A stretch of 64,000 bases of DNA from IMG/VR virus record IMGVR_UViG_3300032144_000005. One strand, written 5' to 3'. Made by a program: the position numbers and the translations under genes. A model generated the notes under the pieces. The model did not search any database, was not told the origin of the DNA, and worked only from the letters and a program-made list of their open reading frames with translations. This stretch comes from a virus. Shown here in pieces: positions 3,801 through 45,734 of the stretch. Each line of letters opens with the position of its first letter. Positions within the stretch are counted from its first letter, which is position 1.

Positions 3801-4292
3801 GTAGGCGATGGTGCCACCCGCGCCGAAGTTTACCGAGGCGCCATCGGCGCTCATCAGGGTCATTGAGTTCTGGACATCGAGCGTCTTGCCGCTGGCGATG
3901 GATAGGTTGGCCCCGGAGGTCGGGATGATCGTCAGGCCGTTGAGTTCACCGTTGAGCGTCAGGCCGCCAAAGATTGGCGTAGAAACGGTGTCGATGTCTT
4001 GCGGGAGCGAGATGGTGACAGGGCCGACCTGCGGCGAGTTGTACGACCCGTTGATCGCCACCTGTCCCGGCGTACCGGTGATCTGGGTAACCGACACCGG
4101 GATCGCGATGGCCAGATACCCCGCGTTGTTGTCGAGGTTGGCGAGGTCCCTGACCAGATAGAAGGCGTCGGTCTCTTGGACATGAACGACCTCGCCGATC
4201 TTGACGAGCGACGGATCGAGCGCGAACCGATCAGAATCGTACGGCGCGTCGATGACGTCCGCCATGAGAATCTGGGCAAGGCTTGTGCGCAT
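831..4292 (-). CDS. Long tail fibre with C-terminal intramolecular chaperone (peptidase S74-like)
   Basis: G/S/T-rich repeats (QITGTxxQV..NG..PQVGPVT..LPQDI x2; IGATTPNTG.FT x2). The C-terminus TSDGRLKTNI..GFIAQEL..LVAEIKSLRARVAQLE is the S74 chaperone signature. Confidence 0.9.
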   Translation of the reverse strand: MRTSLAQILMADVIDAPYDSDRFALDPSLVKIGEVVHVQETDAFYLVRDLANLDNNAGYLAIAIPVSVTQITGTPGQVAINGSYNSPQVGPVTISLPQDIDTVSTPIFGGLTLNGELNGLTIIPTSGANLSIASGKTLDVQNSMTLMSADGASVNFGAGGTIAYAGSVVDQITGTANQVVVNGTVGVPQVGPVTLALPQDIAPTSNVTFNQVATPSALIGTLNVTSVSSTGAIYTASFLRWGSDTAGTSGQIGNIAGPNTVFDFKGSLAFRDIDNALVTRLTINSSGITAGTINCAELFVTRPLGTVAEWSTTTANGLIQRFNVNGTQIGAIGSGDFVVGTSTSDFAVRASIQNLILRAAGEIQCSSSAAAAKLDASGFHVTGVLEASATILGPAPTAALSTIRLPHGVTPTTPADGDMWTTTTGLFIRINGLTVGPLSGAVAAGVTSITGTAGEITASAATGAVTLSIPASVIFTGKTITGGTYLSGAFNGTMGATTPNTGSFTALTATGLVDFVGAATPKVRIGDGTRRIEIGWSAGLSSNYIESMNPGGGSVDMAYYMGGNTAHRFYVSGTEVIRITSTGLQGAIGATTPNTGAFTSLSATTRIVATDGVAIGNNSPSGFGVGAIYGSLADGLVIVGHSGSTYGLRLRLFNGSDVMWTLAGANTAYFSGINGPIGVSGANFGIFTTVTATGNISAANFSGTFAGTHSGTSSGTNTGDQTSVSGSAGWTKLFMSTSHDGTYWLVNNWDGAYWSITSNHGAPARVGFADVSQAGSLTGGTLAAGVTAASLNTINPSGGTLSVGGALACSSNLTVSGSTALFGNSGAAGRFAFNGLNGSGQGSLLVIRTNGADKAYIGTRDAIYGGSATDLVLRSVSENVYIDAASANVATFSPSGLSVVGAISGTQLVATGGGDGIQAAIIQTTSGRLTVIPFFDSTYGALLDSTNPAGSVPQPLTFIGSVLRHRINGVNITTTRSNGLFIGCESAFSVGAGTQDGISCESSGLINISRDNGGVIAARRRNGDGNLFVFYRDLAGVGGIQVTTTSTVYATTSDGRLKTNIRDYTGEDSGPIMDALRPRRYDWKSGQTDHVGFIAQELNEVDPLLARIGAVTVGDSNPTDITDQWQRSDQALVPILVAEIKSLRARVAQLEAA

Positions 4293-4351
4293 TGTGGTGA
4301 GCTGTTGGGCAGCGTCGGGTCGGTAGTGGGTGTATCGCGCCGAAGCGCTTA

Positions 4352-7300
4352 TCAGTCAAGGAATGAGGAGGCGTAGGCGGCGTTGGCGGCGTTCAGGCTG
4401 GAGAGACCGAGGTTCAGGTTGAGGCTCTTGAGCTTCGGGCCGGGCTTCTCCTTCTTGCCGGTGGTCGGCTTCGCGCCGAGCTTCAGCAGGTACTTGTTGA
4501 AGAGCTGGACGCTGGAGCTGACGGCCTCGGAGCCGTGCGAGTTCAGGTTCTCAAGGATGGAGCGGTACTCGCGCTCGGTCGGCTGCACGCGGAACACGCG
4601 CTTCAGCGGGTGGCGCGCCTTGAAGGAGGCGATGACGCGCGCCTGCGGGTCTTCCTCGTCCGGGTGCTCCTCCGCGTAGGCAGAGACCGCCTTCGAGAAG
4701 GAGTCCTTGAACTGGCCGAGATTGTCCTGATAGACGGCCAGCTCCATGCGGGCGACGTACGGCGTGTGCTTGCCGGGGATGCCCTGACCGGAGGACTTGG
4801 ACGGGATGACCTGCAGCTTGAGGTCGCGGCCTGTGGCGCGCAGGTAGTTGCCGACGCTCACGCGCTCATTGAAGGCTGACTCGACGTTGTTCGCGCCGGT
4901 CATTTTATTGAACATCTGTGAGTATTGCAGGACGCTGTTGCCACCCATCACCTGCATCAGCGGGCGGAAGAAGGACTGGTAGTCCATCTTGCCGGTATGG
5001 CGGAGCGTCGAGGCGATCTGCTTGATGCTCTGGAACTGCGACAGGATGAAGATGCGCGAGTCGAAGGAGCCGCCACCGCGTGTGTCATCGCCGTTGATAA
5101 TCCCGTTGGCCACCTCGGAAAGCAGACCGGCGGTGCCGTAGCGGGCCAAGCGCTCCATCGTGGCCGCCGGATCAATGAACGGTGCGACACCGGGAATCAG
5201 GGTCTCCACGTCGGCATCGCGGATGTTCTGCTTCTTGCCAAGCAGCTCCTCGTCGCTCCAGTCGACCGCGAAGGAGGCCGCCATGGTGAGCGGGATGATG
5301 CCCGCCATAAGCGCGATGGTGCCATCCGTGATCGCTGTCGCCGTGTACTGGTTCTGCGCGTTCTGGAAGAGCGTCGGGAAGCGCATCATCGCGGAATACG
5401 GCCAAGTGATGAACGTCATGAACGGCTTCATGATGCCGTTGGTGCGCGCTTCCAGCGGCGTGTTGGTTAGCGTGGAACTGAGCTGGAACTCAGAGACAAC
5501 CAAGCTGCGGATGCGCGAGTATTGCTCGTCGGTGATGATCGGCGCCTGCGGGTTGTTGCGCGTGCGATACCACGCATCGGCGATCATGTGCTCGATAGAG
5601 CCGAGCGCCATCTTGTTGCCGACGGCCTCCTTCATGAAGTCCCACGCCGCCTCATCGTTCAGGACGAGGAACTTCCGGTTGTAGCCCAGATCATTGCCTT
5701 CGAGCTGCATCTCGCCCTCGATCAACTTGCGGGCGAACTCCGCCGGGTTGCCCGAGCTGTTGATGTACTCGATGCCCCGCATGACCATGTCCTTGAAGGT
5801 ATAGTATTGGGAGATCGTCGCACCGTTCAGCATCCACAGGTTGATGGAGTTGAACATGCCGAAGAGGCGGAACTTGGCGGCCAGCGCCTGCTCGCCCTGC
5901 AGGCCACTTAGGTTGACGTCCAGCTTGCCGCGACTGGCCTTGTTGACCGCAGCGGCGGCGACATCAGCAGGCTGCAGGTCGGCGATGCTGCGGGTAAAGC
6001 GCAGTTTGTCGGTGAGCCACTTCGTGACGCGCGAAGTACGACGATCAAGCGGGTCATCCGAGGCCAGCGCGTTGTTCGTTCCGAAGTCGTTCATCATGTC
6101 CTGCGCGTTCAGGAAGTTCGCCGGATCGACGCCACCGACGCGGTTTGTGCGGCGCGCCAGCTCGGCCATGAAGTGATGCTTGGCTCCGATCAGTTCGAGC
6201 GTGGAGGAGACCACCTCGGCGCCTGTACCGCGCACGGCGTTTAGCACGGCTTTCAGTCCGGTGGGTGAGAACTTGTACTTCCACAGTGGCGAGAACATCT
6301 CGGTGATCTGCGAGATCGCTTGGCGGAGGCCCTGCAGGGTGAACGTCGCCGCTACGCCAGTCAGCTCCTCGCCCAGCCGAGCGTCTCCCGAGTGGGTCGC
6401 GTGCGGGTCGTTCAGCTTCGCGATGTTCTTGCGCAGCCCCGTGAGCATCTGGATGTGGTTGGCGGCATCGCGCGCAATCTCGTAGCGCCCCTTGCGGCTG
6501 CCGCGCGTGTCACCCGGCAGATCGGCATCCATGCGCGCCTTGGTCTGCTTGGCCGACAAACCCATGACCTTGCGATATTCACGGTACTCCTCGTCCATCC
6601 CCGCCAGCTCGTGCATCAGGGCTTGGTAGTTCACCATGAACTCGGTGCCGCTGAGGCCGCTCGCGCCGAACGCCTTGTTCATCGCGAAGGAGTGGATGAC
6701 GCCCTTGTTCGAGCCACGGTCGAACAGGTCGACGTCCACCCATTCCGGCGGGAAGTCGTTCGCATCGCGCGATTCCATCATCTGCTTCGGGATGACATGG
6801 ACACCCTCATCGGCCTTCTTGGCGCGCTGGTTGAAAAGGTTGTCCGCCTTGCTGTGCATCTTCGCCAGTGCGGCGATGGTCATCCCGGCGACGTCCGCCT
6901 CAGTGGCAGCGGTGCCGCCCTCCAGCCGGTTTAGCTCGGAGATAAAGGTGGCCAAGTCCGCCTCGTTGCCGGTGGACGCAGCCTTGGCGGTCTCCCACGC
7001 CTGCCGCACGTTGGAGTGCGAGGCGTAGATCGTTACGCCCGCCGACATCGTCTTGGGCGACTCGAAGAGCGGGATGTTGTGATAGACCAGCGGCTCGACG
7101 AAATGCCGCTTCGTTTCGTTGGAGAAGAAGGGCTCGAAGTTCTCGGTGAACTTGGCGCGGCTGATCTTCCAAGAGTCGAAGGCGTTCTTCGCCATCGTCG
7201 GGCCGTCCGTGGTCTGCTGCCACGTCTGGTTCATCTTGGCGATCAGGAGAGCGAGGCTCTCAGTGGGCGAGACGCGACCTGTGAAGATGCCTTGACGGAT

Positions 7301-10300
7301 CAGGCCGCGCACGCGCGCCTGCTCCCTGTCGCCCTCGCCGACGGAGCCGAGCGCCTTGTCGCTGACCTTCAGGCCCTCCTTCTCGAAGATGCGCGCCAGC
7401 TCCTCGTCGATGGCGATGCTCTGGCGGGCCAGCTCGCGCATCGCCGTGGCCCCGTCACCCGTGATCTTGTACTTGGCTGGGCGCAGCGCGTTGAAGACGG
7501 AGATTGCCCGGTTGAGCGGGTCGGTCGTGCCGTCGGGAATATCCATCAAAATCAGCATCAGCGGATTGTAGTACCGCTGGCGGAACTCGTCATAGGTGCC
7601 GTCGAACTTGAGCGCCTTGTAAGCGTTCGTGTAGGCGGTCGACCACTTGCCGCCCAAGATGTCCATCGGCTTGATGTACTCGGCCAGCACCGCCTCCAGC
7701 AGGTACACGCGAGAGGCGAGCGCCTTAGCGGAAGGAGTGCCGATGCCGCGCAGCATGTTGCTCATGGCGTCGTAAGCGGACTTCTGGAGGCGCCGCTTCT
7801 GGTCGCTATAGACCGTGTAGAACGCGGCCTCACTCATGCGCCGGTTCTGGTTGAGGATCGTGTCGTACAGGTCGCCCTGCTTCTTGTTGTCCTCGTTGAG
7901 GAGCCACGCCTTCTGCTTGGCGATGGCCTTCTGCATCTTCTCGCTCTCGGCCTGCGAGAACATGAAGCCCTTCGGCACGGTGCCCTTCTGCATGTCGGAC
8001 GCCTTGGCGTTCGGAGTCGGGGGCACGGTGTACTCCGCACCCTCGGTCATCACGAAGACGAACCCGGTGCCCAGCTTGCCCCGCAGGCGCTCGACCTGAG
8101 CGGTGAGACCGACATCCGGGGTGTTGAGGATGCGGTTGAAAAGCAGGATGTCGCTGTTGAGGTTGGCGAGCAGGATCTCCTCGGCGTCGGTCAGCTCGTT
8201 GCCCTTCTCGACCTTCTTGTCCAGCTCGGCCTTCCGCTTCGTCATAAAGCCGATCTCCCGAACGACGTGCGTCTCCATCTTCTGCGCGTCGATGAGCGCA
8301 GAGCTGACGGCCTGCCGCTGGGCGGAACCCTTCGCGCCGCCCGCGAGATCGTTGATCCGCGCGGTCTCGTCGAACGGGAAGGGTTGCTTGGTCACGACAT
8401 CGACCGCGTTGGTGAACTGGGTCTTCAGCGCCTGAATCTTCTTGCTGAAGGTGTTCTCCTCGCCGCGACCGAAGATCAGGTGCTCCGCCGTGTCCTGACC
8501 GTTGCGCAGGTAGCGCGGCGAGATCGTGCGCTGAATATCCGGCTGCATCAGCAGATTGGCGATCATTGTCCGCAGGAAATTGTTGACCGCGAACTGGGTG
8601 TTGGCGCTGACGGTCGGCTGGATGTCCTGCGCGGTGCGCTGCGTGTACTGCATGCGCTCGGTCGGCGTGAACACGCGGTTGGTGACCGTCTTCACGTTCT
8701 CCGGCTTGAAGGCGATATAGGTCTGGGTGCCCGTGTCGTTGGTCTCCGCGACGTTGTCGTACATCGCGCCGTCGAAGCCCTTGTCGAGCAGCGCCTGCTT
8801 GATGATTTCGACGCTCCCGACGAGGGTCTTCTCGGCGAACGCCCGGTCAGCCGTAGCCTCGTCGATGGCGCCCGCGTTGCGCAGCTCGACGATGTTCTTG
8901 GCGTCGCCCCAGAAGCCGTCGGTCATCTTGATCGGCGTCCTGATGTTCAGGAAGGCGGGGACGAAGTTCACGCCGACGGCGTTGTAGTGCGCCTTGTCGC
9001 CATTGAAGTCGGTGGTGTAGGTGGCCTCCTGCCACGATTCACCGGGCGGCGGGGTGAGCGTCTCGCCGAAGTAGCCCCTCGTGAACCGGACGTTGTTGCC
9101 CTCGACGCGCTTGATCGCCTCCATCAGCTCGCCGAAGTGAAAGCCGTAGTCGGCAGTGATCTTGAAGGTGTCGAAGTCCTTGTTGGTGCCGTGCCACACC
9201 ACGCGCGGCTCCCCGGTCTCGGGGTCGATGACCTTCGAGGCTTTGGCCGGGTCGTTCATCCAGTCGCCAAACCAGCGCTGGAACAGCGGGGTGCGGACGA
9301 TCCGCCAGTGCGACTCCCTGAGCTTGGAGACCTGCCCGTTGGGGGCGAGGAGCTGGCCCTCGGCGTTCCGCTTGAGTTCGACGGCGGCGAGCTGGCGGTC
9401 GGCTTCCTCGGCCAGCCCGACCTGCTGCTCGGTCGTCATCTTGTCCCACGGGATGCCGCCCGTCAGGTAGGGAATGACGTCCATCGGAATCTGGCGCATC
9501 GTCAGGGCCTTGATGCGGCTGTCCAAGTTCTTGTGGTCAATGATCTCCTGCATGCTGAGGGTCTGACCCTCGGTCGTGTTGGTCACGGGCAGGATGGGCG
9601 TCTTGGTCCCGGTGGCCGGGTCGTACTGGAAATGCTGGTCCGCGCCGTCGACGTTCTCGAACACGTCCAGCTTCTCGGTCGGGGTCGGCTCGCCGCCGAT
9701 CCACTGGCGCAGGCTGACAGCCAGCGCGCCGTTGGACTGGGCGAAGTCGCGGTTGATGAACTGGAGGAACAGGTTCTCGACGTACGCCCGCGCCAGCGCC
9801 GGGTTCACGTTGTTCGGACCCTTGATGGCCTTCTGCAGCTCAAGGGCGACGCCCAGAAGGGCACCCTTGATGTACCGGATGATCTGGGAAAGCAGGCTGC
9901 GGGACTCGGTGCGGGAGATGCCGAAGGCCGCGAGGTGGTCCACCGCCCGCTCGATGGCCAGCGTGGTCGGGTCCACGGCGCGCAGCTTCACCATCTCCTC
10001 GGGAGTGATGCTGTCGTAGATGCGCTTCTGCGGCTCAGTAAGCTGCTCGTACGGCGTGTTGGCGATCAGGCGGGGGTCTTGCCCCAACCCGGTCGAGATC
10101 CACGCTTGGGACTGCCAAGGAAGGCCGGAAATGGCCTGATGGTAGAGCCGCTGGGTCCACTCGGGCAGGCCGCGCAGGAAGGGGTGGGCGCCCTCATGGA
10201 ACAGGGCCATCACGTCGTCGCTGGTGATCTCGCCCTTCATGTAGTTGCCGGACAGGCCGACGAAGGCCCGGCCATCCCGGTCGGTCAGCGACACGCCGCG

Positions 10301-13255
10301 CGCCTTACCCTCGTTCGTCACCCGCTTGAGCAGGCTGTCGGCGAGGAAGGCGACGTTCACCCCGGCCAGCTTGAGCGAGGTGATGAAATCGTAGAACTTG
10401 GACTGGGCGACCGGCAGCGTGATCGTGAAGGAGGCCGCCGTGCGCAGGGTCAGCTCCTGCACGGTCGGGCTGCCGGGGCTGAAGGACTTGATTAGGCTCT
10501 CGACCGCTGGGATGGATTCAACATCGGACATCTCCTCGACGATGGCCTTGGTATTGGCGCGCGAGTTACCCGTGACAGCGACGCCCTCGTCGGTGAAGGC
10601 GGCAATGTCGGCATCGCTAAGGGTTTCTCCATCCTCCAGCTTGTTCAGGGCCGCGAGAATCCCCTTCAGCCACACGACGTGGTCGGCCATCTTGCGCGCG
10701 GACATCGCGCGTGGGGATTCGCCCTCGTCGGCGATTTCCTCGGTCTCCTCTTCGCCCACGGGTACGCCGCGCGCCGGTCCCCCCGCCGACTCCTCGTCGC
10801 TCGCGGGTATATCAACGCTGGTGTCCTCCTCGACAATGGTGGCCTCGCCGCCGCCCGCGTCCTCGTCGATGTTGGTCTCGGTTTCCTCAGTGACATCCTC
10901 GCCGCCCACGTCCGTCTCGTCAGCCGTCCGCTCCTCGAAGAGCTGGACGGAACCCGACTGGACGGTGCGCTTGGTGCCCTTGACGTTGTCGGCTGCGGCG
11001 AGGCGCGCTTGCATCTCCGGCGACAGCGTCGCGCGGTCCTTGTAGAAGGCGTCGAAATACTGGGCCAGCTCGCGGTTGTTGCGCACGTCATCGACGCTGT
11101 CGAAGTTGATCGACAGGTCCTTCTCGTTGACGCCCTTGCCCGCGTCCCATTCGAGGTAGCCCAGCACGCGGTAGCGACCGTCGCCGCGCTGCTCCATCTT
11201 ATCCCACTCGGCGGTCTCCTTGCCGGTGACATTGAAGTCCGTGGTGCGATTGTTCTTCCCGGTGCGCTCGTGCTCCTTGGCGATGCGCTGCGAGCGGCCC
11301 ACGCGCAGCCCCTTGCCGGGCTTGCCGGGCAAAGCCTGTGAGTTGCGCCGGACGGTGCGCAGGTGGACCTTGCCGGTCTGGGTGTCTTCGATGAAGACCG
11401 CCTTGCGGGTCAGCTTGCCCGCGTTGCCACCATCGGCAGCGATCTCCATCCGGGTGAAGTTGTTGCCGTCCTCGGGCGTGAACATGTAGCCGCGAATCGG
11501 GGCCGGGATGCCTGAGAATACGGGCTCATCCGGCTTGACCGTCACGAGCGACGGCACCGAGTTGTCTGGGAAGTGAGCGAGGAAGACCTTTTCGGCCACC
11601 TTCGAGCTGTGGCCAGCCTCGGTGGCTTCCTTGAGGAAGGCCGTGCGCACCTCCTCGCGGCTGCGCTCCACCGGGCCGGTGAGGTACTTGGCGAGCAGGG
11701 TGCTCAGTGGCGGCTTGTCGCCCGTCGAGGGAGGAACCGAGGGCTTCACGGGGGCCGGGGCGGGCGCTTCACCTTCCGGCGCGAGGACCGGCGGCGGCGC
11801 GGGTGGCGCAACCACCGGGGCATTGCGCGCGGTGACGGCATCCGCCGCCTCGTTGACTTCGACCGGCGTGACGACCTTGGCGACCGGGATCTCCTCGTGG
11901 TCGGCCACAAGGCTGACGGCACCCTTGGTGTCGAGGGTTTGCTGATAGGCCGGGGTCGCAGGCGGAAGCGCGAGGGTCTGACGGGTCGGGCGGGATGCGC
12001 CGAGCTGCACCGGGCTGCCTTCGCCCAAGACGAAATTCGTGCTGCTGTCGCCGAGCTGGCGCGGGGCCGGGCGCGCGGGCCGGGTGACACCGGGCTGCGG
12101 CTCGCCACCCTCGCCCATGATGAAATTGGGATCGGGCGTACCAGCGGGACCGGGCAACGCGAGCTGTTCGGGCGGCGGCGGAAGCGCGAGGGTCTTGGGC
12201 TTGTAGCCCTCCTCGGACTCCTCCTTCTCGTTGCTCGGGGGCTGCGTGTTGATGAAGCCGGAAGCAGCACCGAAGCCCGCGCCAAGGACGCCGCCGCCAA
12301 CCATGGCTTCCGCAATGCGGTCCTTGATGGCGCTCGCCGAGAGCTGGCGCTTGTTGTTGAACTCCTCGGCGGCGATGGCGACGCCTTCCTGAAGTCCTTC
12401 GGTGAGACCCTCGCTAATGCCGCTCGCGGCCATGTTGCTGAGTGATCCCCAGACGCCGCCGCGCGCCAGAACGTCCTTCACCATCGTCGGGACGAACTTC
12501 CGCTCCACCGCCGGGAAGAGCTTATCCATGATCGGCAACTGGCCGATGTTCTCCAGCTTACCCGCGAGGGCGCCGCCACCGATGGCGCTCAGGATTCCGG
12601 TGCCGGATTCCTTGGCCTCCTCGTCCAGTCCGCCGTAGATGTCCGCCGTGTTCTGGACCGCGTTGGCAATGAACGAGGACTTCTCGGCGGCGGCTCGCGC
12701 CGCCGTACGCGCGGCAAGAGCTTCGAGACCTTCGGCGGCGGCGAGCCGTGCGGCTCGCGCGCCCACACCCACGCCAAGGCCCATCGGGATAGCCATCGAC
12801 GGTAGGTTCTCGCCGCCGATGCGCGCCGCATAGTTGAGGAAGTCGGAAGGGCCTTCGATGTCCCTGAAGCTCTGGACGCCGTAGGGGTCGCGCCTCGCCG
12901 CCGCCTCCTGTTCCTCTTGGGCGGCCTTCTTCGCGAACCAGTCACCAAGATCGCTGAAGGCATCAATCGGATAGACGAGCTTGTTGCTGCGCGCAGCCAG
13001 TTCGCCGACCTGATACAGGGTCTTCGGGAGGAAGTCAGCGATGCCGCTGCCAATCGCAGTCAGTCCCGTCTCCCACGGGCTGTCGCGCCGCTCGCGGCGC
13101 AAGCTCTGGTATTCTTCGTAGAACTCGGGGTCCGTGTCGAAGAGCTGCTTCTTGCCCTCGTTGACCACGCGGTCGCCGAGTTCGAGAATCAAAGACTCGT
13201 CGGAGAGATCACTCCCCTGACGAAGGATGCGATACCTGTCGAGGGTGGCGCTCAC
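4352..13255 (-). CDS. Giant internal virion/ejection protein of the polyvalent type, with zincin-like HExxH and ART-PolyVal-like domains
   Basis: 2967 aa at the large ejection-protein position. HEGAH lies at 10184-10198. LFQRWFGDW..SKVID..GEPRVVWHGT..F..F..GFHFG..FLNIRTP..GFDG..YIAFKPENVK at about 8670-9300 matches the ART-PolyVal pattern. Confidence 0.75.
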   Translation of the reverse strand: MSATLDRYRILRQGSDLSDESLILELGDRVVNEGKKQLFDTDPEFYEEYQSLRRERRDSPWETGLTAIGSGIADFLPKTLYQVGELAARSNKLVYPIDAFSDLGDWFAKKAAQEEQEAAARRDPYGVQSFRDIEGPSDFLNYAARIGGENLPSMAIPMGLGVGVGARAARLAAAEGLEALAARTAARAAAEKSSFIANAVQNTADIYGGLDEEAKESGTGILSAIGGGALAGKLENIGQLPIMDKLFPAVERKFVPTMVKDVLARGGVWGSLSNMAASGISEGLTEGLQEGVAIAAEEFNNKRQLSASAIKDRIAEAMVGGGVLGAGFGAASGFINTQPPSNEKEESEEGYKPKTLALPPPPEQLALPGPAGTPDPNFIMGEGGEPQPGVTRPARPAPRQLGDSSTNFVLGEGSPVQLGASRPTRQTLALPPATPAYQQTLDTKGAVSLVADHEEIPVAKVVTPVEVNEAADAVTARNAPVVAPPAPPPVLAPEGEAPAPAPVKPSVPPSTGDKPPLSTLLAKYLTGPVERSREEVRTAFLKEATEAGHSSKVAEKVFLAHFPDNSVPSLVTVKPDEPVFSGIPAPIRGYMFTPEDGNNFTRMEIAADGGNAGKLTRKAVFIEDTQTGKVHLRTVRRNSQALPGKPGKGLRVGRSQRIAKEHERTGKNNRTTDFNVTGKETAEWDKMEQRGDGRYRVLGYLEWDAGKGVNEKDLSINFDSVDDVRNNRELAQYFDAFYKDRATLSPEMQARLAAADNVKGTKRTVQSGSVQLFEERTADETDVGGEDVTEETETNIDEDAGGGEATIVEEDTSVDIPASDEESAGGPARGVPVGEEETEEIADEGESPRAMSARKMADHVVWLKGILAALNKLEDGETLSDADIAAFTDEGVAVTGNSRANTKAIVEEMSDVESIPAVESLIKSFSPGSPTVQELTLRTAASFTITLPVAQSKFYDFITSLKLAGVNVAFLADSLLKRVTNEGKARGVSLTDRDGRAFVGLSGNYMKGEITSDDVMALFHEGAHPFLRGLPEWTQRLYHQAISGLPWQSQAWISTGLGQDPRLIANTPYEQLTEPQKRIYDSITPEEMVKLRAVDPTTLAIERAVDHLAAFGISRTESRSLLSQIIRYIKGALLGVALELQKAIKGPNNVNPALARAYVENLFLQFINRDFAQSNGALAVSLRQWIGGEPTPTEKLDVFENVDGADQHFQYDPATGTKTPILPVTNTTEGQTLSMQEIIDHKNLDSRIKALTMRQIPMDVIPYLTGGIPWDKMTTEQQVGLAEEADRQLAAVELKRNAEGQLLAPNGQVSKLRESHWRIVRTPLFQRWFGDWMNDPAKASKVIDPETGEPRVVWHGTNKDFDTFKITADYGFHFGELMEAIKRVEGNNVRFTRGYFGETLTPPPGESWQEATYTTDFNGDKAHYNAVGVNFVPAFLNIRTPIKMTDGFWGDAKNIVELRNAGAIDEATADRAFAEKTLVGSVEIIKQALLDKGFDGAMYDNVAETNDTGTQTYIAFKPENVKTVTNRVFTPTERMQYTQRTAQDIQPTVSANTQFAVNNFLRTMIANLLMQPDIQRTISPRYLRNGQDTAEHLIFGRGEENTFSKKIQALKTQFTNAVDVVTKQPFPFDETARINDLAGGAKGSAQRQAVSSALIDAQKMETHVVREIGFMTKRKAELDKKVEKGNELTDAEEILLANLNSDILLFNRILNTPDVGLTAQVERLRGKLGTGFVFVMTEGAEYTVPPTPNAKASDMQKGTVPKGFMFSQAESEKMQKAIAKQKAWLLNEDNKKQGDLYDTILNQNRRMSEAAFYTVYSDQKRRLQKSAYDAMSNMLRGIGTPSAKALASRVYLLEAVLAEYIKPMDILGGKWSTAYTNAYKALKFDGTYDEFRQRYYNPLMLILMDIPDGTTDPLNRAISVFNALRPAKYKITGDGATAMRELARQSIAIDEELARIFEKEGLKVSDKALGSVGEGDREQARVRGLIRQGIFTGRVSPTESLALLIAKMNQTWQQTTDGPTMAKNAFDSWKISRAKFTENFEPFFSNETKRHFVEPLVYHNIPLFESPKTMSAGVTIYASHSNVRQAWETAKAASTGNEADLATFISELNRLEGGTAATEADVAGMTIAALAKMHSKADNLFNQRAKKADEGVHVIPKQMMESRDANDFPPEWVDVDLFDRGSNKGVIHSFAMNKAFGASGLSGTEFMVNYQALMHELAGMDEEYREYRKVMGLSAKQTKARMDADLPGDTRGSRKGRYEIARDAANHIQMLTGLRKNIAKLNDPHATHSGDARLGEELTGVAATFTLQGLRQAISQITEMFSPLWKYKFSPTGLKAVLNAVRGTGAEVVSSTLELIGAKHHFMAELARRTNRVGGVDPANFLNAQDMMNDFGTNNALASDDPLDRRTSRVTKWLTDKLRFTRSIADLQPADVAAAAVNKASRGKLDVNLSGLQGEQALAAKFRLFGMFNSINLWMLNGATISQYYTFKDMVMRGIEYINSSGNPAEFARKLIEGEMQLEGNDLGYNRKFLVLNDEAAWDFMKEAVGNKMALGSIEHMIADAWYRTRNNPQAPIITDEQYSRIRSLVVSEFQLSSTLTNTPLEARTNGIMKPFMTFITWPYSAMMRFPTLFQNAQNQYTATAITDGTIALMAGIIPLTMAASFAVDWSDEELLGKKQNIRDADVETLIPGVAPFIDPAATMERLARYGTAGLLSEVANGIINGDDTRGGGSFDSRIFILSQFQSIKQIASTLRHTGKMDYQSFFRPLMQVMGGNSVLQYSQMFNKMTGANNVESAFNERVSVGNYLRATGRDLKLQVIPSKSSGQGIPGKHTPYVARMELAVYQDNLGQFKDSFSKAVSAYAEEHPDEEDPQARVIASFKARHPLKRVFRVQPTEREYRSILENLNSHGSEAVSSSVQLFNKYLLKLGAKPTTGKKEKPGPKLKSLNLNLGLSSLNAANAAYASSFLD

Positions 13256-38323: not shown

Positions 38324-39391
38324 TTATGGTTTGGGTTCATTGCCCAGCTCCAGATAGTGGCGCTGGGTTGTAGCTGGGGTCGTATGCCCCAGTAATTCTT
38401 GGGAGCTGCGGATCGCGCGCTCCTTCATCATCTCTTCGAGCTGGTCATAGGTGCGCTTGTAGTTGTGCTGGCTCGCGGTCTTGCGCATGCTGCGCATCGT
38501 TCCGACGCTGATCCCGGCCTTGGCCCTGATCTCGCGGAAGGTGATGCTGACGATGCTGCGACTGTAGCGTTTCCACTCGGGAAATAGGTAGCGCTCACCG
38601 GGCTGGAGTGGGGCCATCGCCTCATAGAGGATGGCTCGCATCTCCGGCGTGATCTCGAATGACAATTCGCGTTTCGTCTTTCCGGTGGAAATGCGAATGT
38701 CCTTCTCGTGGATGCACGACCGCTCCATCCGACTGAGGTCACTCAGGCGCAGGCCCGTTTGATAGGAGAAGAGGATCAGGTAGCGCCAGAACAGGGCGTA
38801 GGATTTCGATGCCGCGATGATCTTCTGCACCTCCTCGACGGAGTAGTGAGCCGTCTTCACTGGCACGAGCTGGGCCTGAGTCATGCCATCGCGCTTCACA
38901 TTCACATCGAGCGATGGGTCGATCAGGATCGAGCGCTTGGCATGGTGGTATTTGAAGAACGACCGATAGTATTTCAGTTTCCGAATCTTCGTGGACACGG
39001 CGAGTCCATCCATCGCATTGATCGCGACGTCGATGTGGCATGCCTTGGTGTCACTCACACGGCTGAGCCGGTTCGCCGTGGCGAAACTCTGCATCTCGTC
39101 GCAGGTGGCGGAAACAGTTCGCTCCGATACACCGCGTGCGGTTGCTGCGTTCATCCACTCGTAGATCGCATCCTTGAATAGCACCTCGCGAAGTGCGCCC
39201 AGCTTGACGATGGCATCGAGCGCCACGGGTCCGGCCAGTGCAGCGTATTCCTTTTGCTGGAGCCCTGCGGCCTCCGCAATTTTCTCCGCCGACTTCATGT
39301 CGGTGGCGCCACGGAGCGGGACCTTAGCTCTGCGTCCGCTCTCCGTCTGCAGGAGAGCGTAGTACACTCCCCGGATTTGTTTTATTTCCAT
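38324..39391 (-). CDS. int: Tyrosine recombinase/integrase
   Basis: TGLRLSDL (R), TGKTK (K), MRSMRKT (HxxR equivalent with H>R), LLGH and RHY (catalytic Y). Confidence 0.85.
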   Translation of the reverse strand: MEIKQIRGVYYALLQTESGRRAKVPLRGATDMKSAEKIAEAAGLQQKEYAALAGPVALDAIVKLGALREVLFKDAIYEWMNAATARGVSERTVSATCDEMQSFATANRLSRVSDTKACHIDVAINAMDGLAVSTKIRKLKYYRSFFKYHHAKRSILIDPSLDVNVKRDGMTQAQLVPVKTAHYSVEEVQKIIAASKSYALFWRYLILFSYQTGLRLSDLSRMERSCIHEKDIRISTGKTKRELSFEITPEMRAILYEAMAPLQPGERYLFPEWKRYSRSIVSITFREIRAKAGISVGTMRSMRKTASQHNYKRTYDQLEEMMKERAIRSSQELLGHTTPATTQRHYLELGNEPKP

Positions 39392-40403: not shown

Positions 40404-40775
40404 TCAGTTCTCGTCGTATATCATCCGCGCCTCAGCCAACACGCGCTCGGTGTTGTAGTGGTCGGGCAGGCTCTCCTCGGTCATCGACGACACGAGATAA
40501 ACCCCCTTCCCCTTCCTCGTTAGGACCATGTAGAGCGTGTGCTCCGGGTAGCGGGCAGCCTTGGTTCCAAAGCAGAGCGCGGTGAACGTATGCGACTTCA
40601 ACTTCTGGAAGAAGTCGACGTTCGCATAGTGCTCCTCGAACTTGGCAATGGATTCCTCGATGCGCTGCCGGTACAGATCGCTCTCCACGTCCGTCCTTGG
40701 CCTCCTGTACAGCTTCTTGTGGTAGGCGTTGATCTCACTCAACGCCGTAGCTGTTAGCTCCACCTTCGTTTTCAT
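40404..40775 (-). CDS. Hypothetical protein
   Basis: AGGAGG 4 nt before ATG, a rare SD in this genome; overlaps the JAB gene end. Confidence 0.65.
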   Translation of the reverse strand: MKTKVELTATALSEINAYHKKLYRRPRTDVESDLYRQRIEESIAKFEEHYANVDFFQKLKSHTFTALCFGTKAARYPEHTLYMVLTRKGKGVYLVSSMTEESLPDHYNTERVLAEARMIYDEN

Positions 40776-42012
40776 ATGCCTCCTGTATTGCCTGTTGGTT
40801 GGCGTGTCCCTTGAACACCTTCTGGGCGTCGTAGGCCGCGTTGATCTTGGCGACTGACTCGGTGGTGCACCACGTCCCTTCCTTGGTGGTGGTGTACCCG
40901 TGCTTGGCGAGGAACGTGGCCGCAGCGGTGAAGCTCTCGAACTCGATCCATTGCCACAGGTACTTCAGGTCGAAGTCGTAGCCGCAGATGCCTTCGCTCG
41001 GGTGGATCACCGGCTCGCTGCGAGCGGTGATGTTGTCGAGGGTCCACTGCTCGTCGGCAGCGATCTCTAGCTGTCCTGCAACGTCCCCTGCAGGACCTTG
41101 CGTGCCTCCCCCTTGCTGATTCGCATGGCCTTGCGCAGCGTGGAAACTGCCCGGCGGAAGCTCGTGGTCCCAGCGCGCACCTCCTTGGCCAGCAAGCCCG
41201 CCGCCAGCATGCAGCCGATGGTTGCTCGGGGCATAGACGGTTCGCGGGAACTGCTCCCACTCCTCTCCGCCCTGCCGTGGCCATGTCGTCGGTGTGTATG
41301 TTGGCTGCTGAAATCGGATGAGGTTCTCCGACCATCTGGCCGGGAACCCCACCTCGTTGCTGACGGGCGCCTTCAGCAGGGCCATCAAGATTTCATTGTG
41401 GGTGGATACGGGCAGCATCGTCGCGAGCGCACTCGGAATCTCGAACCAGTCGGAGGCCACCACGTTCTCGAAGAAGTGTTGGATGCCGGGACGGATGACG
41501 TTACCGGCGCTGTCCAGCTCGCCGGGGAACTTCATCGACACGCGGCTGTGCAGGTCGAGCTTCGCCTGACCGAGGTGACCGACCGTCATGTGCAGGCCGA
41601 CGATGGTCTCCTCGTTGCTCTTGTCCGTGCCGGACTGGAAGGCGCCCGCCGAACAGTGGTGGTGCACGGTGCCCATGTACAGCCACGGGTCGCCGAAGAT
41701 GGCGAGGTCGATGGCCATGTGGGCGTGGTCGGGCAGCTCACGGGTGGTCATGCCCGTCCCGTATTGCTGCGGGAAGGCATGCGGCATCCACTCGCGGGTG
41801 ACCGGGTTGTAGTACAGGCGCACCTGCACCTCGTGTTCCTTGTGGGCAAGGAAGAACGCGATGATGGTGTGCCATGTGGTGACGGGGATCTTGGCCCCGC
41901 GCCAACGGACGCCGGGCACTCCTTCCTTCGCTTCGACAAAGGGCGAGAAGCCCTCGAATAGGTCGCTCTGGAATGGCTTCCAGATCTTCCCTGAGTTGAT
42001 GATATATGTCAT
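40735..42012 (-). CDS. JAB/MPN metalloprotease (prokaryotic deubiquitinase-like) with C-terminal extension
   Basis: Upstream Glu (HEVQ), GTVHHHC (HxH), AFQSGTD..E (S-x2-D) and GLHMTVG. Confidence 0.85.
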   Translation of the reverse strand: MTYIINSGKIWKPFQSDLFEGFSPFVEAKEGVPGVRWRGAKIPVTTWHTIIAFFLAHKEHEVQVRLYYNPVTREWMPHAFPQQYGTGMTTRELPDHAHMAIDLAIFGDPWLYMGTVHHHCSAGAFQSGTDKSNEETIVGLHMTVGHLGQAKLDLHSRVSMKFPGELDSAGNVIRPGIQHFFENVVASDWFEIPSALATMLPVSTHNEILMALLKAPVSNEVGFPARWSENLIRFQQPTYTPTTWPRQGGEEWEQFPRTVYAPSNHRLHAGGGLAGQGGARWDHELPPGSFHAAQGHANQQGGGTQGPAGDVAGQLEIAADEQWTLDNITARSEPVIHPSEGICGYDFDLKYLWQWIEFESFTAAATFLAKHGYTTTKEGTWCTTESVAKINAAYDAQKVFKGHANQQAIQEAYENEGGANSYGVE

Positions 42013-42030: not shown

Positions 42031-43500
42031 TTAGAGAACCTCGATGCGTTGGATGTGGGTGCCCGTGCACTCGCTGTCGGTCACGTCGCTGTCGCGCAAC
42101 TCACTATCCATCTCGCTGAAGTAATCCATCTTGTCGTTGTCTCGCAGCCACTGCAGGACAGCTTCGGTGCCCTCCTCGTAGATGCTGCGCGGGATGTCGA
42201 ACTCGCCCTCCTCGAACACGCGGTGGTATTCGGTAACGAACTTGGTGACGTCCTTCTTGATCTTGATGGTGACCTCGACCGTGTCTTCGTCGCTGTCGGT
42301 GCCGGATTCCTGCTCCGGCAGCAGCTCGATGATGCGCAGGTGGTGCACACCGATGGCCGCGTTGATCAGGTCCTCGCTCAGCACCTTCTCGCGCCTCGGC
42401 GCCAACTGGCCGGGATTGGCCATCAAGTGCGCCATCACCTTCTCGGTGGTGTCGCACTCGACGGGGAGCTGGACGCCCGTGATCTGGAAGCACCGGCCAC
42501 GGCAGAACGTGGTGGCCGGATACTGGCGGATGATGTCAACCATCTGCTCACCGAGCCAGTCATGCAGCATCTGCTCTGTGATCTCGGGCGGTGCGTCCGG
42601 CGCGTTCAGAATCTCCTGCCACTCGCGCGGGCACTCGATCAGGCAGCTCTTGGCGATCAGCATGGGGATGCTGTCATCCCGTGTGCCCAAGTAATAGCCG
42701 GGGCTACTCACCTCGACCTTGACCGGCTGCCTGCTGCCGAGCGCCGTGAGGACAGGCAGCATCCACTCCTGCATGGCGTGCAGCTCCTCCGGCACCTCGA
42801 CGTAGTGGCAATAGCGGAGCTGCAGCCAGTAGTCGGACGACCCGTTGTGGGTGACGTGGATGGCGGCGTGCTGGTTGGCATCGTCGTTCACCCGCATGTC
42901 GATCACCGAGAACTCAAGGTAGCCGTTGCTGCGCAGGCGCTGTTCGAGGTGCTCGGGCAGGTCGCCGTTGTCCTCCTCGTGGAGCGCGATTACCTTGCCG
43001 ACGAGCGACGCCGCTTGGACGGCTTCGATCACGCACTCGTGGTCGAGCAGGTTCGGCTCGGCGTCAGCGTCGGGGATGATGTCCCACGGATTCACCCGGT
43101 CGAACTGGATGCGGGTGTCGAGGATCTCCGCCGTGACGTAGATCTCGTTCCGGTCTTCCGTGGTGTTGTTCACCCCGTCGAAGATGATGCGCACCAGTGC
43201 CTCGCCATCGAGGTTGTCGTACGCCTCCTCGTACTCGCCGAGATATTCCTCGGAGAAGCCAAGGTTCTTGACCCTGACCCTGCCGTCGTGGAACGGGTTG
43301 CGGCACAGTGAGAGGTGCTCACGGGCCACCTGATAGAAGTCCTCGTCGCCCTCGCCATAGCGGAGGATGACTTGGCCGTTGATGTCGACGTACGGTGAGT
43401 ACCACACGTCGGTCAGGGGACCGTTCTCACCGCTGTACTGGTGAAGAAAGTCCGGTTGGATTCGGGCGAATAGAAACCCGATGCGGGTTGGCTTATTCAT
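42031..43500 (-). CDS. Acidic 489-aa hypothetical protein inside the Ubl operon
   Basis: Strong codon bias; between E1 and JAB genes; no recognised motif. Confidence 0.75.
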   Translation of the reverse strand: MNKPTRIGFLFARIQPDFLHQYSGENGPLTDVWYSPYVDINGQVILRYGEGDEDFYQVAREHLSLCRNPFHDGRVRVKNLGFSEEYLGEYEEAYDNLDGEALVRIIFDGVNNTTEDRNEIYVTAEILDTRIQFDRVNPWDIIPDADAEPNLLDHECVIEAVQAASLVGKVIALHEEDNGDLPEHLEQRLRSNGYLEFSVIDMRVNDDANQHAAIHVTHNGSSDYWLQLRYCHYVEVPEELHAMQEWMLPVLTALGSRQPVKVEVSSPGYYLGTRDDSIPMLIAKSCLIECPREWQEILNAPDAPPEITEQMLHDWLGEQMVDIIRQYPATTFCRGRCFQITGVQLPVECDTTEKVMAHLMANPGQLAPRREKVLSEDLINAAIGVHHLRIIELLPEQESGTDSDEDTVEVTIKIKKDVTKFVTEYHRVFEEGEFDIPRSIYEEGTEAVLQWLRDNDKMDYFSEMDSELRDSDVTDSECTGTHIQRIEVL

Positions 43501-44230
43501 TACTGGGGTCCTTTTTCTTGAGGGTTGTGATGCGACTGAAGTTCGAGGCGTGACGAATCGGCGAGTAATCGAGCGCCTCCTGCTCGATGTCCGATGCCAT
43601 CTGGTAGTGATACCACATGAGATGAAGTCCGTAGGTGGCGGCGCACAGGTTCGCGATGGCGAGCTGCGGCGTCTGCTCCTGCGCCTGCCCCGTGCACCCC
43701 GCCTGTGCGGCGAAGGGATCGTCCTCCTTGTTGGTGAGGATCTCGGGGAACATGACGCGCGGGTCGAGCTTGGTGCCCTTCCATTGCGGCGTGTAGAACT
43801 GGGCCTCGGCGTCGGTGTAGCCGTTGCCCGTCATGATGACGTCGCAGCCCTTGCGGTCGGCGGCGTCGAGGATGCGCACGCGACCCGGATGGTTGTCAAC
43901 GCAGGCGAACACCAGCGCGCCCGCCTTCAACCACGGCTCGTCGCCGCTGAAGAAGCTGGTGATCGCACTGAAGCGGCCCTTGTAGTAGTCGTCGCTCGCA
44001 TCGAAGAGGGCGATGGACTTGTACTGCCCGAGGTTGGACTCACTGAAGAGCTGCCGGTCCATGTTCTTTTCTTCGAGCGTGTCGCCGTCGACCAAGACGA
44101 TCTCGGGAGAACGGCTCGGGTTGCGGTGGTTGCGAACGGAGCGGAGGAGCGGCGGAATGAGATAGCTGCCGACCCCACCGCAGCCGACGATGACGATCTG
44201 GTCGGGCCAAGGTTTGAGTTCTGATTTCAT
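43493..44230 (-). CDS. E1-like (ThiF/MoeB family) Ubl-activating enzyme
   Basis: IVIVGCGGVGS, VDGDTLEEKNMDRQLF, K, FACVDN, R, TGN and candidate catalytic Cys in AGCTG..QLAIAN. Start reassigned to MKSELKPW. Confidence 0.92.
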   Translation of the reverse strand: MKSELKPWPDQIVIVGCGGVGSYLIPPLLRSVRNHRNPSRSPEIVLVDGDTLEEKNMDRQLFSESNLGQYKSIALFDASDDYYKGRFSAITSFFSGDEPWLKAGALVFACVDNHPGRVRILDAADRKGCDVIMTGNGYTDAEAQFYTPQWKGTKLDPRVMFPEILTNKEDDPFAAQAGCTGQAQEQTPQLAIANLCAATYGLHLMWYHYQMASDIEQEALDYSPIRHASNFSRITTLKKKDPSNE

Positions 44231-44481
44231 GATTTGATGAGGAGCTGGAAGAGCCGTTGGGTTTTGGCTCGGTTGAAGATTTCGTTGTGGATGGCGACGA
44301 ACTCGGCGGCCTTGGTGGCGGCCTCCCGATACTTGGTGGGCGACAGGAGGTACGCCATCGTCGATGGATTGAGCGCCATCTCCTCGATGGTGGAGCCGAT
44401 CTTGCCTTGCGTGACCAAGTCGACTGGCACCGGGTAGGTGCGGAGCTGGTCGCTCAACAGGGTGTGGAGGAGCTTGCTCAT
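44227..44481 (-). CDS. 84-aa hypothetical protein between E2 and E1
   Basis: Translationally coupled by overlaps on both sides. Confidence 0.7.
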   Translation of the reverse strand: MSKLLHTLLSDQLRTYPVPVDLVTQGKIGSTIEEMALNPSTMAYLLSPTKYREAATKAAEFVAIHNEIFNRAKTQRLFQLLIKS

Positions 44482-45191
44482 AGCATGGCCACCCAGTTGA
44501 AGGACTCACCCGAGATGACCGGGCTGTAGTTGTGCCACTCCTGCCGGGGCGGGAGCGGCTGTCCGTTCATGTCGAAGCGCATGAACTCGGCGAGGTACGA
44601 CCGCCGCTCCTTGCCGCTCAGGTCGGTGTTCCAGATCGAGGAGCTGAAGTGAACAAGCGCCTCCCGCAGGAACATGACCGAGTTGAAGTAGGGGCTGCGG
44701 TCCTTCTCGTCCTTGAAGTTGCCCATGCAGATCTCCGCGTGGTCGTAGATGTTCGGCATGGGCAGACGATGGATCGTGGTGCGATCCGTCTGCTTGCGCA
44801 GGGCCACGAGGTAGCACTTCATCTGGTGCGCCACGAAGAACAGGCGGCAGTCCTTGGGGACCGGCCAGTCGTTGGCGTACTCGATGGCGTCGAGCGACTC
44901 GAACCACGGCACGAGGCACAGTTCCTTGCCGGTGCCGCGCGCCATGTAGTAGGTGCGCACCCGGAGATACGGCAGCTCGACCGCCATCTTCATCTCCTTG
45001 CCCTGAAGGCAGAGATGCACGGGCAGGCCGTCGATGGTGGTGAAGCTCGGGAACGTGTGCGGCACCTGCTCCGCCATCATGGAGACGATGTCCGAGCGCG
45101 GGCCGAGCGGGTCCACTTGGAGGCTCAGCCGATGGAAGTTGCCCTGCTGATCGAGCAGGATCAACGGGGTCTTTTGATTGAATGGAATCAT
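44478..45191 (-). CDS. Prokaryotic E2-like protein (family D/PRTRC protein B-like)
   Basis: RLPMPNIYDHAEICMG (PN..G/A.IC.G with Cys) followed by F.SSIWNTDL; operon context. Confidence 0.75.
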   Translation of the reverse strand: MIPFNQKTPLILLDQQGNFHRLSLQVDPLGPRSDIVSMMAEQVPHTFPSFTTIDGLPVHLCLQGKEMKMAVELPYLRVRTYYMARGTGKELCLVPWFESLDAIEYANDWPVPKDCRLFFVAHQMKCYLVALRKQTDRTTIHRLPMPNIYDHAEICMGNFKDEKDRSPYFNSVMFLREALVHFSSSIWNTDLSGKERRSYLAEFMRFDMNGQPLPPRQEWHNYSPVISGESFNWVAML

Positions 45192-45206: not shown

Positions 45207-45243
45207 AAAAATAAGGCGGGCGCCCCCTTTCGAGGGCGCCCGC
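45207..45243 (-). terminator. Intrinsic terminator between Ubl and E2 genes
   Basis: GCGGGCGCCC-TCGAAAGG-GGGCGCCCGC followed by CTTATTTTT. Confidence 0.85.
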
Positions 45244-45275: not shown

Positions 45276-45734
45276 TTACGACGCCTTGGACGCCTTGGTG
45301 TTGGCCTGCGTCTCGATGGAGATCACCATGCCATGACGAATCACGACATCATCGGTGATCTGCGCACCGTCGATGCGGCACACGGAGTTGCGACCGAAGC
45401 CCAGCACCTGCTGATACGAGACATTGGTGAGAATGTCGCGGATCGTGGTGCCCTCCGGCAGCTCACGGGTGATGCTGTTGCCCGGCCCGTGGCTCAGCGT
45501 GACGGAGACGTTCGCCGCCTTTCGGTTGGCGACCGTCTCGACATCCACGACGTCACCCGGCTGGATAACATACGTCGACGGCTGGACCTGACCACGGACA
45601 CGCGCCTGAACATTGTCGCCAATGCCGAGCGCCATCTTGATCGAGGTGTTGGACAGAAGGTCGGCGATGGTACGTCCAGCCCAGTTCTGGGTGATGGAGT
45701 TGCCGTAGCCGAACTTGATGGTTGTGGAGGACAT
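45276..45734 (-). CDS. Tandem di-ubiquitin-like (beta-grasp) protein
   Basis: Two ~74-aa units alignable by eye (GNSIT, G.TI.D.L.N, LG.G.N, VI..G.V..ET.AN.KA); directly upstream of E2/E1/JAB. Confidence 0.82.
   Translation of the reverse strand: MSSTTIKFGYGNSITQNWAGRTIADLLSNTSIKMALGIGDNVQARVRGQVQPSTYVIQPGDVVDVETVANRKAANVSVTLSHGPGNSITRELPEGTTIRDILTNVSYQQVLGFGRNSVCRIDGAQITDDVVIRHGMVISIETQANTKASKAS

Follow-up and report, generated by a model that had tools for sequence, protein, structure and literature searches.

The window studied here is a stretch of 64,000 nucleotides from the IMG/VR virus record IMGVR_UViG_3300032144_000005, which is assigned to a phage by its genes for a tail fibre with an S74 chaperone domain, virion structural proteins and an integrase. 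It contains a cassette of six co-directional genes, partly overlap-coupled, in the order Ubl (ubiquitin-like protein), E2, small ORF, E1, variable protein and JAB, with the Ubl gene first. The features of the cassette are as follows:

45276-45734, minus strand: di-unit ubiquitin-like precursor gene (P0001), from the translation of a 152-aa ORF, an AF2 model and Foldseek
45516-45734, minus strand: unit 1 (aa 1-73) of the translation, ending in ETVANRKA (motif at 45516-45539)
45291-45515, minus strand: unit 2 (aa 74-148) of the translation, ending in ETQANTKA (motif at 45291-45314)
45279-45290, minus strand: SKAS tail (aa 149-152), followed by the stop codon at 45276-45278
45281-45298, no strand assigned: tandem 9-bp duplication, read from the sequence as two copies of acgccttgg on the plus strand
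45216-45243, minus strand: hairpin resembling an intrinsic terminator in the gap between Ubl and E2, with a 12-bp stem (11 G-C pairs) and a T run
44478-45191, minus strand: E2-like protein (P0002) with Cys155; Pfam Prok-E2_D, 27.4 bits (cut-off 25)
44227-44481, minus strand: 84-aa ORF, overlap-coupled between E2 and E1, without a family match
43493-44230, minus strand: ThiF-type E1 of 245 aa, with an internal ATG start at 44230; Pfam ThiF, 1.3e-12
42031-43500, minus strand: acidic protein of 489 aa between E1 and JAB, of no known family
40735-42012, minus strand: JAMM/MPN+ (JAB) protease (P0005) of 425 aa, catalytic domain roughly aa 1-235, from invariant zinc-site residues, AF2 and Foldseek

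Outside the cassette, a tyrosine recombinase gene of the phage integrase family (38324-39391, minus strand) lies downstream of the JAB gene, with a few small ORFs in between, and the phage may be temperate in view of this gene. Another large gene of the window, an ORF of 2967 aa (4352-13255, minus strand), is conserved in a short segment only (aa ~1290-1530), with matches in unrelated phages to proteins annotated as crAss-like RNAP-associated, zincin, DarB-like or methyltransferase; it probably encodes a giant virion protein or an ejected protein.

The two units of P0001 follow each other without a spacer: the first closes with ETVANRKA (residues 66-73), directly followed by ANVSVT as the start of the second, which closes with ETQANTKA (residues 141-148) before SKAS and the stop codon. 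Alignment of the halves 1-74 and 75-152 gives 42% identity, and the unit bodies are 39% identical. The 152-aa translation thus bears out the unit ends proposed in the initial annotation, as well as its statement that a GG or KG terminus is missing, as the protein ends in ...TKASKAS. The terminal 9-bp tandem duplication that it described is also present: CCAAGGCGT occurs twice on the coding strand, corresponding to perfect plus-strand copies of the repeat at 45281-45289 and 45290-45298, and the last codons of the gene are ACC AAG GCG TCC AAG GCG TCG TAA. Four contigs, which come from at least three samples, encode an identical protein ending in SKAS, and the SKAS end is therefore no assembly slip. 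The closest relative of P0001 (P0007, 81% identity, from a different sample and sequencing run) does not have the duplication and ends in ...ETQANTKAV, and the duplication is absent from locus L001, which encodes a relative 81% identical to P0001.

An AF2 model of P0001, built on an alignment of 34 di-unit relatives, consists of two beta-grasp domains (mean pLDDT 86.6), the last strands of which (residues 62-67 and 136-142) are each followed by a flexible, ubiquitin-like tail of ~5-6 residues, with lower confidence in the tails (68-74 and 143-152). Both predicted units have the beta-beta-alpha-beta-beta core with flexible C-terminal tail of ubiquitin-like beta-grasp proteins. The top PDB matches of the model in Foldseek were ISG15 and linear di-ubiquitin (E about 1e-8), and the matching AlphaFold DB clusters were ubiquitin-like and polyubiquitin entries. 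With sequence profiles, P0001 gave a sub-threshold match to ThiS only in Pfam, 82 family units gave scattered weak matches to ThiS, TGS, SAMP2 and Rad60-SLD, and the NCBIfam models, PRTRC_C included, gave no relevant match to either P0001 or the 82 units; this beta-grasp family falls in no curated family.

A word-index protein search yielded one close relative only; when 1.84 billion representatives were searched exhaustively with an HMMER profile, there were 142 matches at E<=1e-3, typically ~73 aa (one unit) or ~148 aa (two units) in length. Two of the HMMER matches, P0067 (with LysM repeats) and P0068, were false positives and were dropped as relatives. The tail motif was scored when located <=6 residues from the C-terminus, and was present in 123/144 sequences examined. 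In these 123 proteins Ala follows the Lys in 94 cases, Gly in 22 and some other residue (among Q, N, D, T and S) in 7, which corresponds to about 77% of the family for Ala and about 18% for Gly. Beyond the K-[A/G] position there are no further residues in 45 proteins, one in 47, two in 15, three in 9 and more than three in 7; the sequence of this tail is not conserved and has no preference beyond small residues, and none of the family members examined stops at the Lys itself. The Lys residues K72 and K147 are the sole invariant columns in the alignment of 34 di-unit sequences, and the same Lys is the sole invariant column in an alignment of 82 units. As this Lys alone is invariant per unit across about 140 relatives, the tail motif goes beyond what is expected by chance.

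A last conserved residue followed by a short unconstrained tail is the classical sign of the mature, activated C-terminus of a Ubl, and Ala148 is likely to be that end in P0001, judged by this conservation pattern. The alignment of homologous Ubls proposed in the initial annotation, asking whether KA is conserved at both units, thus gave a clearly positive outcome, in the form of K-[A/G] plus 0-6 unconstrained residues. The 9-bp duplication appears to have changed a ...TKAS end into ...TKASKAS: in the former a single residue follows K-A, the layout met most often in the family, and among one-residue tails Ser ranks second. The slip is best read as a neutral change in a tail that would be discarded.

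Some family members deviate from the common architecture. The single units P0037, P0043, P0046, P0073, P0128 and P0135 have extensions of 18-60 residues past K-A or K-G, which are acidic, Lys/Ala-rich, Pro/Gln-rich, low-complexity or hydrophobic and are reminiscent of ubiquitin-fusion precursors. P0099, P0121 and P0075 have an ISG15-like arrangement, with a divergent, motif-less beta-grasp-like domain at the N-terminus, a Pro/Ala-rich linker and a canonical unit ending in K-A.

Around distant relatives the gene order is the same, with Ubl, an E2 of ~235-265 aa, a small ORF in most, an E1 of ~240 aa and a variable protein, and single-unit Ubls with an exact KA end (P0038) or KG end (P0047) are encoded in the same operon. 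A JAB homologue was found at the end of the cassette in L009 and L011, and the gene in the JAB position of L003 could not be aligned with JAB. The hairpin between Ubl and E2 is conserved in L001 (about 720-770), which suggests that the Ubl may be made in excess over the cassette enzymes. All 5 orthologues of the E2-like protein that were compared have Cys155, Pro144 and Asn147 unchanged, and an E2 with the invariant Cys is present in each cassette of which downstream DNA was recovered. The E1 has PRTRC_ThiF as its best NCBIfam match (50.7 bits vs a cut-off of 144.75), and its GxGG (G16/G18/G19), DxD (D48/D50), RQ (R59-Q60), D112 and C179 are invariant; it has the predicted Rossmann loop, Arg finger (RQ), Mg-binding Asp and crossover Cys of E1-like adenylating enzymes. 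Comparison of the five E1 sequences gave no convincing residue that tracks an Ala vs a Gly terminus of the Ubl. In the same five sequences, the nucleotide-binding loop reads GGV in the three K-Ala E1s (window, L003 and L009) and GGI in the two K-Gly E1s (L012 and L011), and a Leu/Val difference two residues past the DGD motif also splits the two groups; with so small a set, these differences carry no weight. A complex prediction of E1 with ATP and Ubl residues 75-148 scored 0.27 against a mark of 0.34, and counts for neither side.

The residues E61, H117, H119, S127 and D130 of the JAB protein do not vary among the 10 sequences compared, and sequence and model together predict the E...HxH(x7)SxxD zinc site on an MPN fold that is typical of JAMM/MPN+ proteases. 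Its match to Prok-JAB is weak (E=2.6e-4 in an orthologue), and the AF2 model (pLDDT 84.6) matches Rpn11, CSN5, AMSH and the bacterial Ubl-deubiquitinase complex 8tyx in Foldseek. Of the remaining two genes, the small ORF has a counterpart of 63-124 aa between E2 and E1 in most of the relatives' cassettes examined and of 222 aa in the P0060 contigs, while the slot between E1 and JAB is occupied in relatives by barely conserved proteins of 221-541 aa, with weak similarity between the 489-aa protein of the window and the 541-aa protein in the same slot of L009. As neither the small ORF nor the slot protein matches any family, both are candidate adaptor, E3-like or substrate proteins.

This gene content also bears on two readings in which no protein would be modified with the Ubl. 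The units could act as a carrier of the ThiS/MoaD type, with adenylation and perhaps thiocarboxylation serving a phage-specific modification of small molecules or nucleic acids and with JAB merely exposing the C-terminus. The Pfam similarity of the units, which is confined to ThiS, TGS and SAMP2 if the weak Rad60-SLD matches are left aside, and the minimal ThiF-type E1 of 245 aa are in line with such a carrier. We nevertheless consider it very unlikely, since an E2-fold protein with invariant Cys occurs in every cassette with downstream DNA recovered, a rhodanese, sulfurtransferase or biosynthetic gene was not recognised among the cassette genes, and sulfur carriers are known to end in Gly-Gly (PMC1779556). 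Alternatively, the K-A motif could serve binding or structure only and the Ubl act non-covalently, for example by serving as a decoy for the Ubl or CBASS machinery of the host or by inhibiting it. A role in counter-defence is plausible in a phage, and conjugation is a proposal drawn from comparison; however, every cassette seen combines the Ubl with an intact E1, E2 and JAB that are inherited along with it, and a fixed small residue plus variable tail, with many proteins stopping exactly at that residue, fits an activated terminus far better, which makes a non-covalent role most improbable.

If the Ubl is conjugated, its two units could be used as monomers or as one di-Ubl. The Ala-terminated conjugation put forward in the initial annotation is partly supported: the K-A conservation is strong, and as to the two outcomes offered there, two monomers or a di-Ubl, sequence can at most favour one. 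The motif at the internal junction is complete in 34/34 di-unit relatives, all of which thus have the layout of polyubiquitin genes (tandem units, each with the full terminal motif) as far as sequence layout is concerned, and in all 34 the choice between A and G is the same in both units (27 A/A and 7 G/G). Identity between the sister units of a protein amounts to 47% for the body and 81% for the 9-residue tail, vs 28% and 47% for units of different proteins; the ratio of tail to body identity is equal within and between proteins, and hence no tail co-evolution beyond shared ancestry was found. For the 68 units, the best match was the unit's own partner in 27 cases, the same position in another protein in 19, the other position in 7 and a single-unit protein in 15. 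P0010 is a possible three-unit member, with two extra copies that are nearly identical and end in K-T-A. Duplication or homogenisation of units has, to judge from these patterns, recurred, with the junction tail staying complete each time, and the combination of a labile unit number with a full motif at every junction favours monomers.

In the opposing, ISG15-like reading only SKAS is trimmed and residues 1-148 are conjugated intact via Ala148, with the inner ETVANRKA as a relic of the duplication. The modelled fold of P0001 resembles ISG15 as well as linear di-ubiquitin, the similarity of tails within proteins is accounted for by overall unit similarity, and Bil systems make use of uncut Ubls that have two or three beta-grasp domains (PMC11601603). 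Uncleaved multi-domain forms are also expected in the present family, as P0099, P0121, P0075, P0019 and P0022 contain an N-terminal or middle beta-grasp domain without the motif. This has to be set against the clade of P0001, P0007, P0008 and P0011, where orthology of the units follows their position and the identity of their bodies is as low as 33-39%, yet both tails are intact, with the full motif and the invariant Lys in each. The repeated switches between one and two units, possibly three in P0010, with a complete junction motif, and the majority of relatives being single units in the same operon, also argue against an intact di-Ubl, and we regard it as rather unlikely. Internal cleavage of P0001 into monomers is, on balance, the reading towards which the comparison leans.

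The family has so far been found on phage or phage-like contigs only, in about 140 sequence clusters. A scan of IMG/VR with a JAB profile identified eight viral contigs of 35-113 kb, and all eight encode a family Ubl about 4 kb upstream of JAB, which ends in K[A/G] plus 1-2 residues and is a di-unit protein in 4/8. The same profile found no relative in one genome per GTDB species, a scan of limited sensitivity by which absence is not proven. No deposited phage is closely related to the window: with the whole cassette as query, blastn gave a trivial 48-bp match only, and a tblastn search for the Ubl in 50,697 deposited phage genomes gave no match.

To our knowledge, every system for bacterial Ubl conjugation characterised so far (type II CBASS, Bil and Bub) is host-owned. 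The nearest described kind to the window cassette is the class 6d operon (Iyer, Burroughs and Aravind 2006, PMC1779556), which corresponds to the PRTRC cassettes of NCBIfam (TIGR03735-03742). In both, individual genes encode a small beta-grasp Ubl, an E2 that lacks the His and resembles the Prok-E2_D type, a minimal ThiF-type E1 and a JAB protein; the E2 and E1 of the window match PRTRC_B/Prok-E2_D and PRTRC_ThiF best, and both are found on mobile elements, e.g. proteobacterial plasmids and Ralstonia phage Dina in the case of PRTRC. The layout of the Ubl tail is also shared (small-x-x-Lys-small): five canonical PRTRC_C proteins, from four plasmids and phage Dina, end in [A/I]-G-x-K-G plus 0-60 residues, a minority of the window's Ubl family reads A-G-x-K-G, and the class 6d terminus has been described as a 'highly conserved glycine' (PMC1779556). 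The differences are that the Ubl ends in Ala and often consists of two tandem units, and that a small ORF and a variable large protein are peculiar to the cassette of the window.

The cultured Ralstonia phage Dina (L005, NC_055026.1) has all genes of the canonical PRTRC set (E, C, F, B, A and ThiF) at 1398-5750, where about 60 residues follow ...VGRKG in PRTRC_C, which would need cleavage before activation for this reason. Membership of the window cassette in PRTRC was considered and rejected: the Ubl ends in Ala, has no match to TIGR03738 and aligned with PRTRC_C of phage Dina in hhalign at a probability of 0.3, the E1 and E2 are far below the cut-offs (for the E2, 20.3 bits vs 131 for NCBIfam PRTRC_B), and the PRTRC A, E and F models had no match among the six proteins of the cassette region that were scanned.

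Activation of a terminal Ala has a precedent in type II CBASS, where a bacterial E1/E2 activates a Gly or Ala end and the JAB protein Cap3 reverses the conjugation (Jenson 2023; Ledvina 2022). The CD-NTases of these systems end in Gly or Ala, the Ala-ended enzyme of E. cloacae is conjugated by Cap2, and thioesters are still formed with G-to-A mutants of CBASS CD-NTases (PMC10097602); in a Cap2 structure the C-terminus of the E. cloacae CD-NTase lies in the adenylation site as an AMP adduct (10.1101/2022.03.31.486616). The suggestion in the initial annotation that Ala-terminated conjugation would be unusual substrate specificity for an E1 was therefore overstated, given the conjugation of the E. 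cloacae enzyme by Cap2 (PMC10097602). The E1 of the window weakly matches Cap2-type 'E1-E2' models in PADLOC. Unlike the window cassette, CBASS has an enzyme as its substrate in place of a beta-grasp Ubl, a fusion of E1 with E2 and a penultimate residue that varies, and it serves host defence and is not phage-borne.

The Bil system (Chambers 2023, PMC10557695; Gong 2024, PMC11601603) resembles the window family in the layout of the Ubl end: in Bil, a universally conserved C-terminal residue is followed by <=9 non-conserved residues that are removed by a JAB protein, with BilC removing the residues past the conserved Gly of its Ubl (PMC10557695). In addition, the JAB model of the window resembles the bacterial Ubl-deubiquitinase complex 8tyx. 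It differs in that its Ubls end in Gly, that its multi-domain Ubls lack a terminal motif in each unit and that it is a host anti-phage system. Classification of the window cassette as Bil (BilABCD) was rejected, since the terminus is Ala and PADLOC matched the E1 alone, weakly and as Cap2-like, with no match for Ubl, E2 or JAB of the cassette.

Polyubiquitin genes resemble the P0001 family in having head-to-tail units with complete C-terminal motifs and a short tail past the last unit, in the variable number of units and in signs of concerted evolution or recurrent duplication. They differ in ending their units with Gly-Gly vs Lys-Ala here and in having identical units vs diverged units here (39% in the body), and the processing of the window precursor is predicted only.

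From these comparisons we consider it fairly probable that P0001 is a polyubiquitin-like precursor in a phage cassette, which is trimmed and probably also cut at the junction by JAB, and the Ala-terminated units of which are conjugated by the E1 and E2. The JAMM protease would cut after Ala148, removing SKAS, and probably also between Ala73 and Ala74, which would give two Ala-terminated monomers. The ThiF-type E1 would then adenylate the Ala carboxylate and form a thioester on Cys179, from where the Ubl would be passed to Cys155 of the E2 and become attached to lysines of host or phage proteins during infection, in a conjugation that JAB would probably be able to reverse. That many uncultured phages own a complete ubiquitination-like pathway of this kind, from a poly-Ubl precursor through JAMM-cut Lys-Ala monomers to conjugation through alanine, is put forward as a realistic but tentative possibility.

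A beta-grasp Ubl family that normally ends in Lys-Ala, with tandem units and in a phage-borne cassette, appears to be new: in the searchable literature, including that on PRTRC function and on phage-encoded Ubl systems, no description of this family was found. The Ubls of Bil, ThiS/MoaD and class 6d have been described with Gly ends (PMC10557695, PMC11601603, PMC1779556). Should the Ala indeed be activated, E1 chemistry that accepts Ala would reach from CBASS enzymes to genuine ubiquitin-fold modifiers, and the natural A/G series within the family allows the reading of the last residue by E1 and JAMM proteins to be studied. Due to the penultimate Lys, trypsin would leave a single-Ala (+71 Da) remnant on modified lysines, and conjugates formed via Lys-Ala would escape standard di-Gly proteomics entirely. 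The finding also raises the question which proteins the phage tags during infection, and, if the proposed pathway is true, phages would have a counterpart of their own to the host's Bil and CBASS conjugation systems, one that does not rely on glycine.
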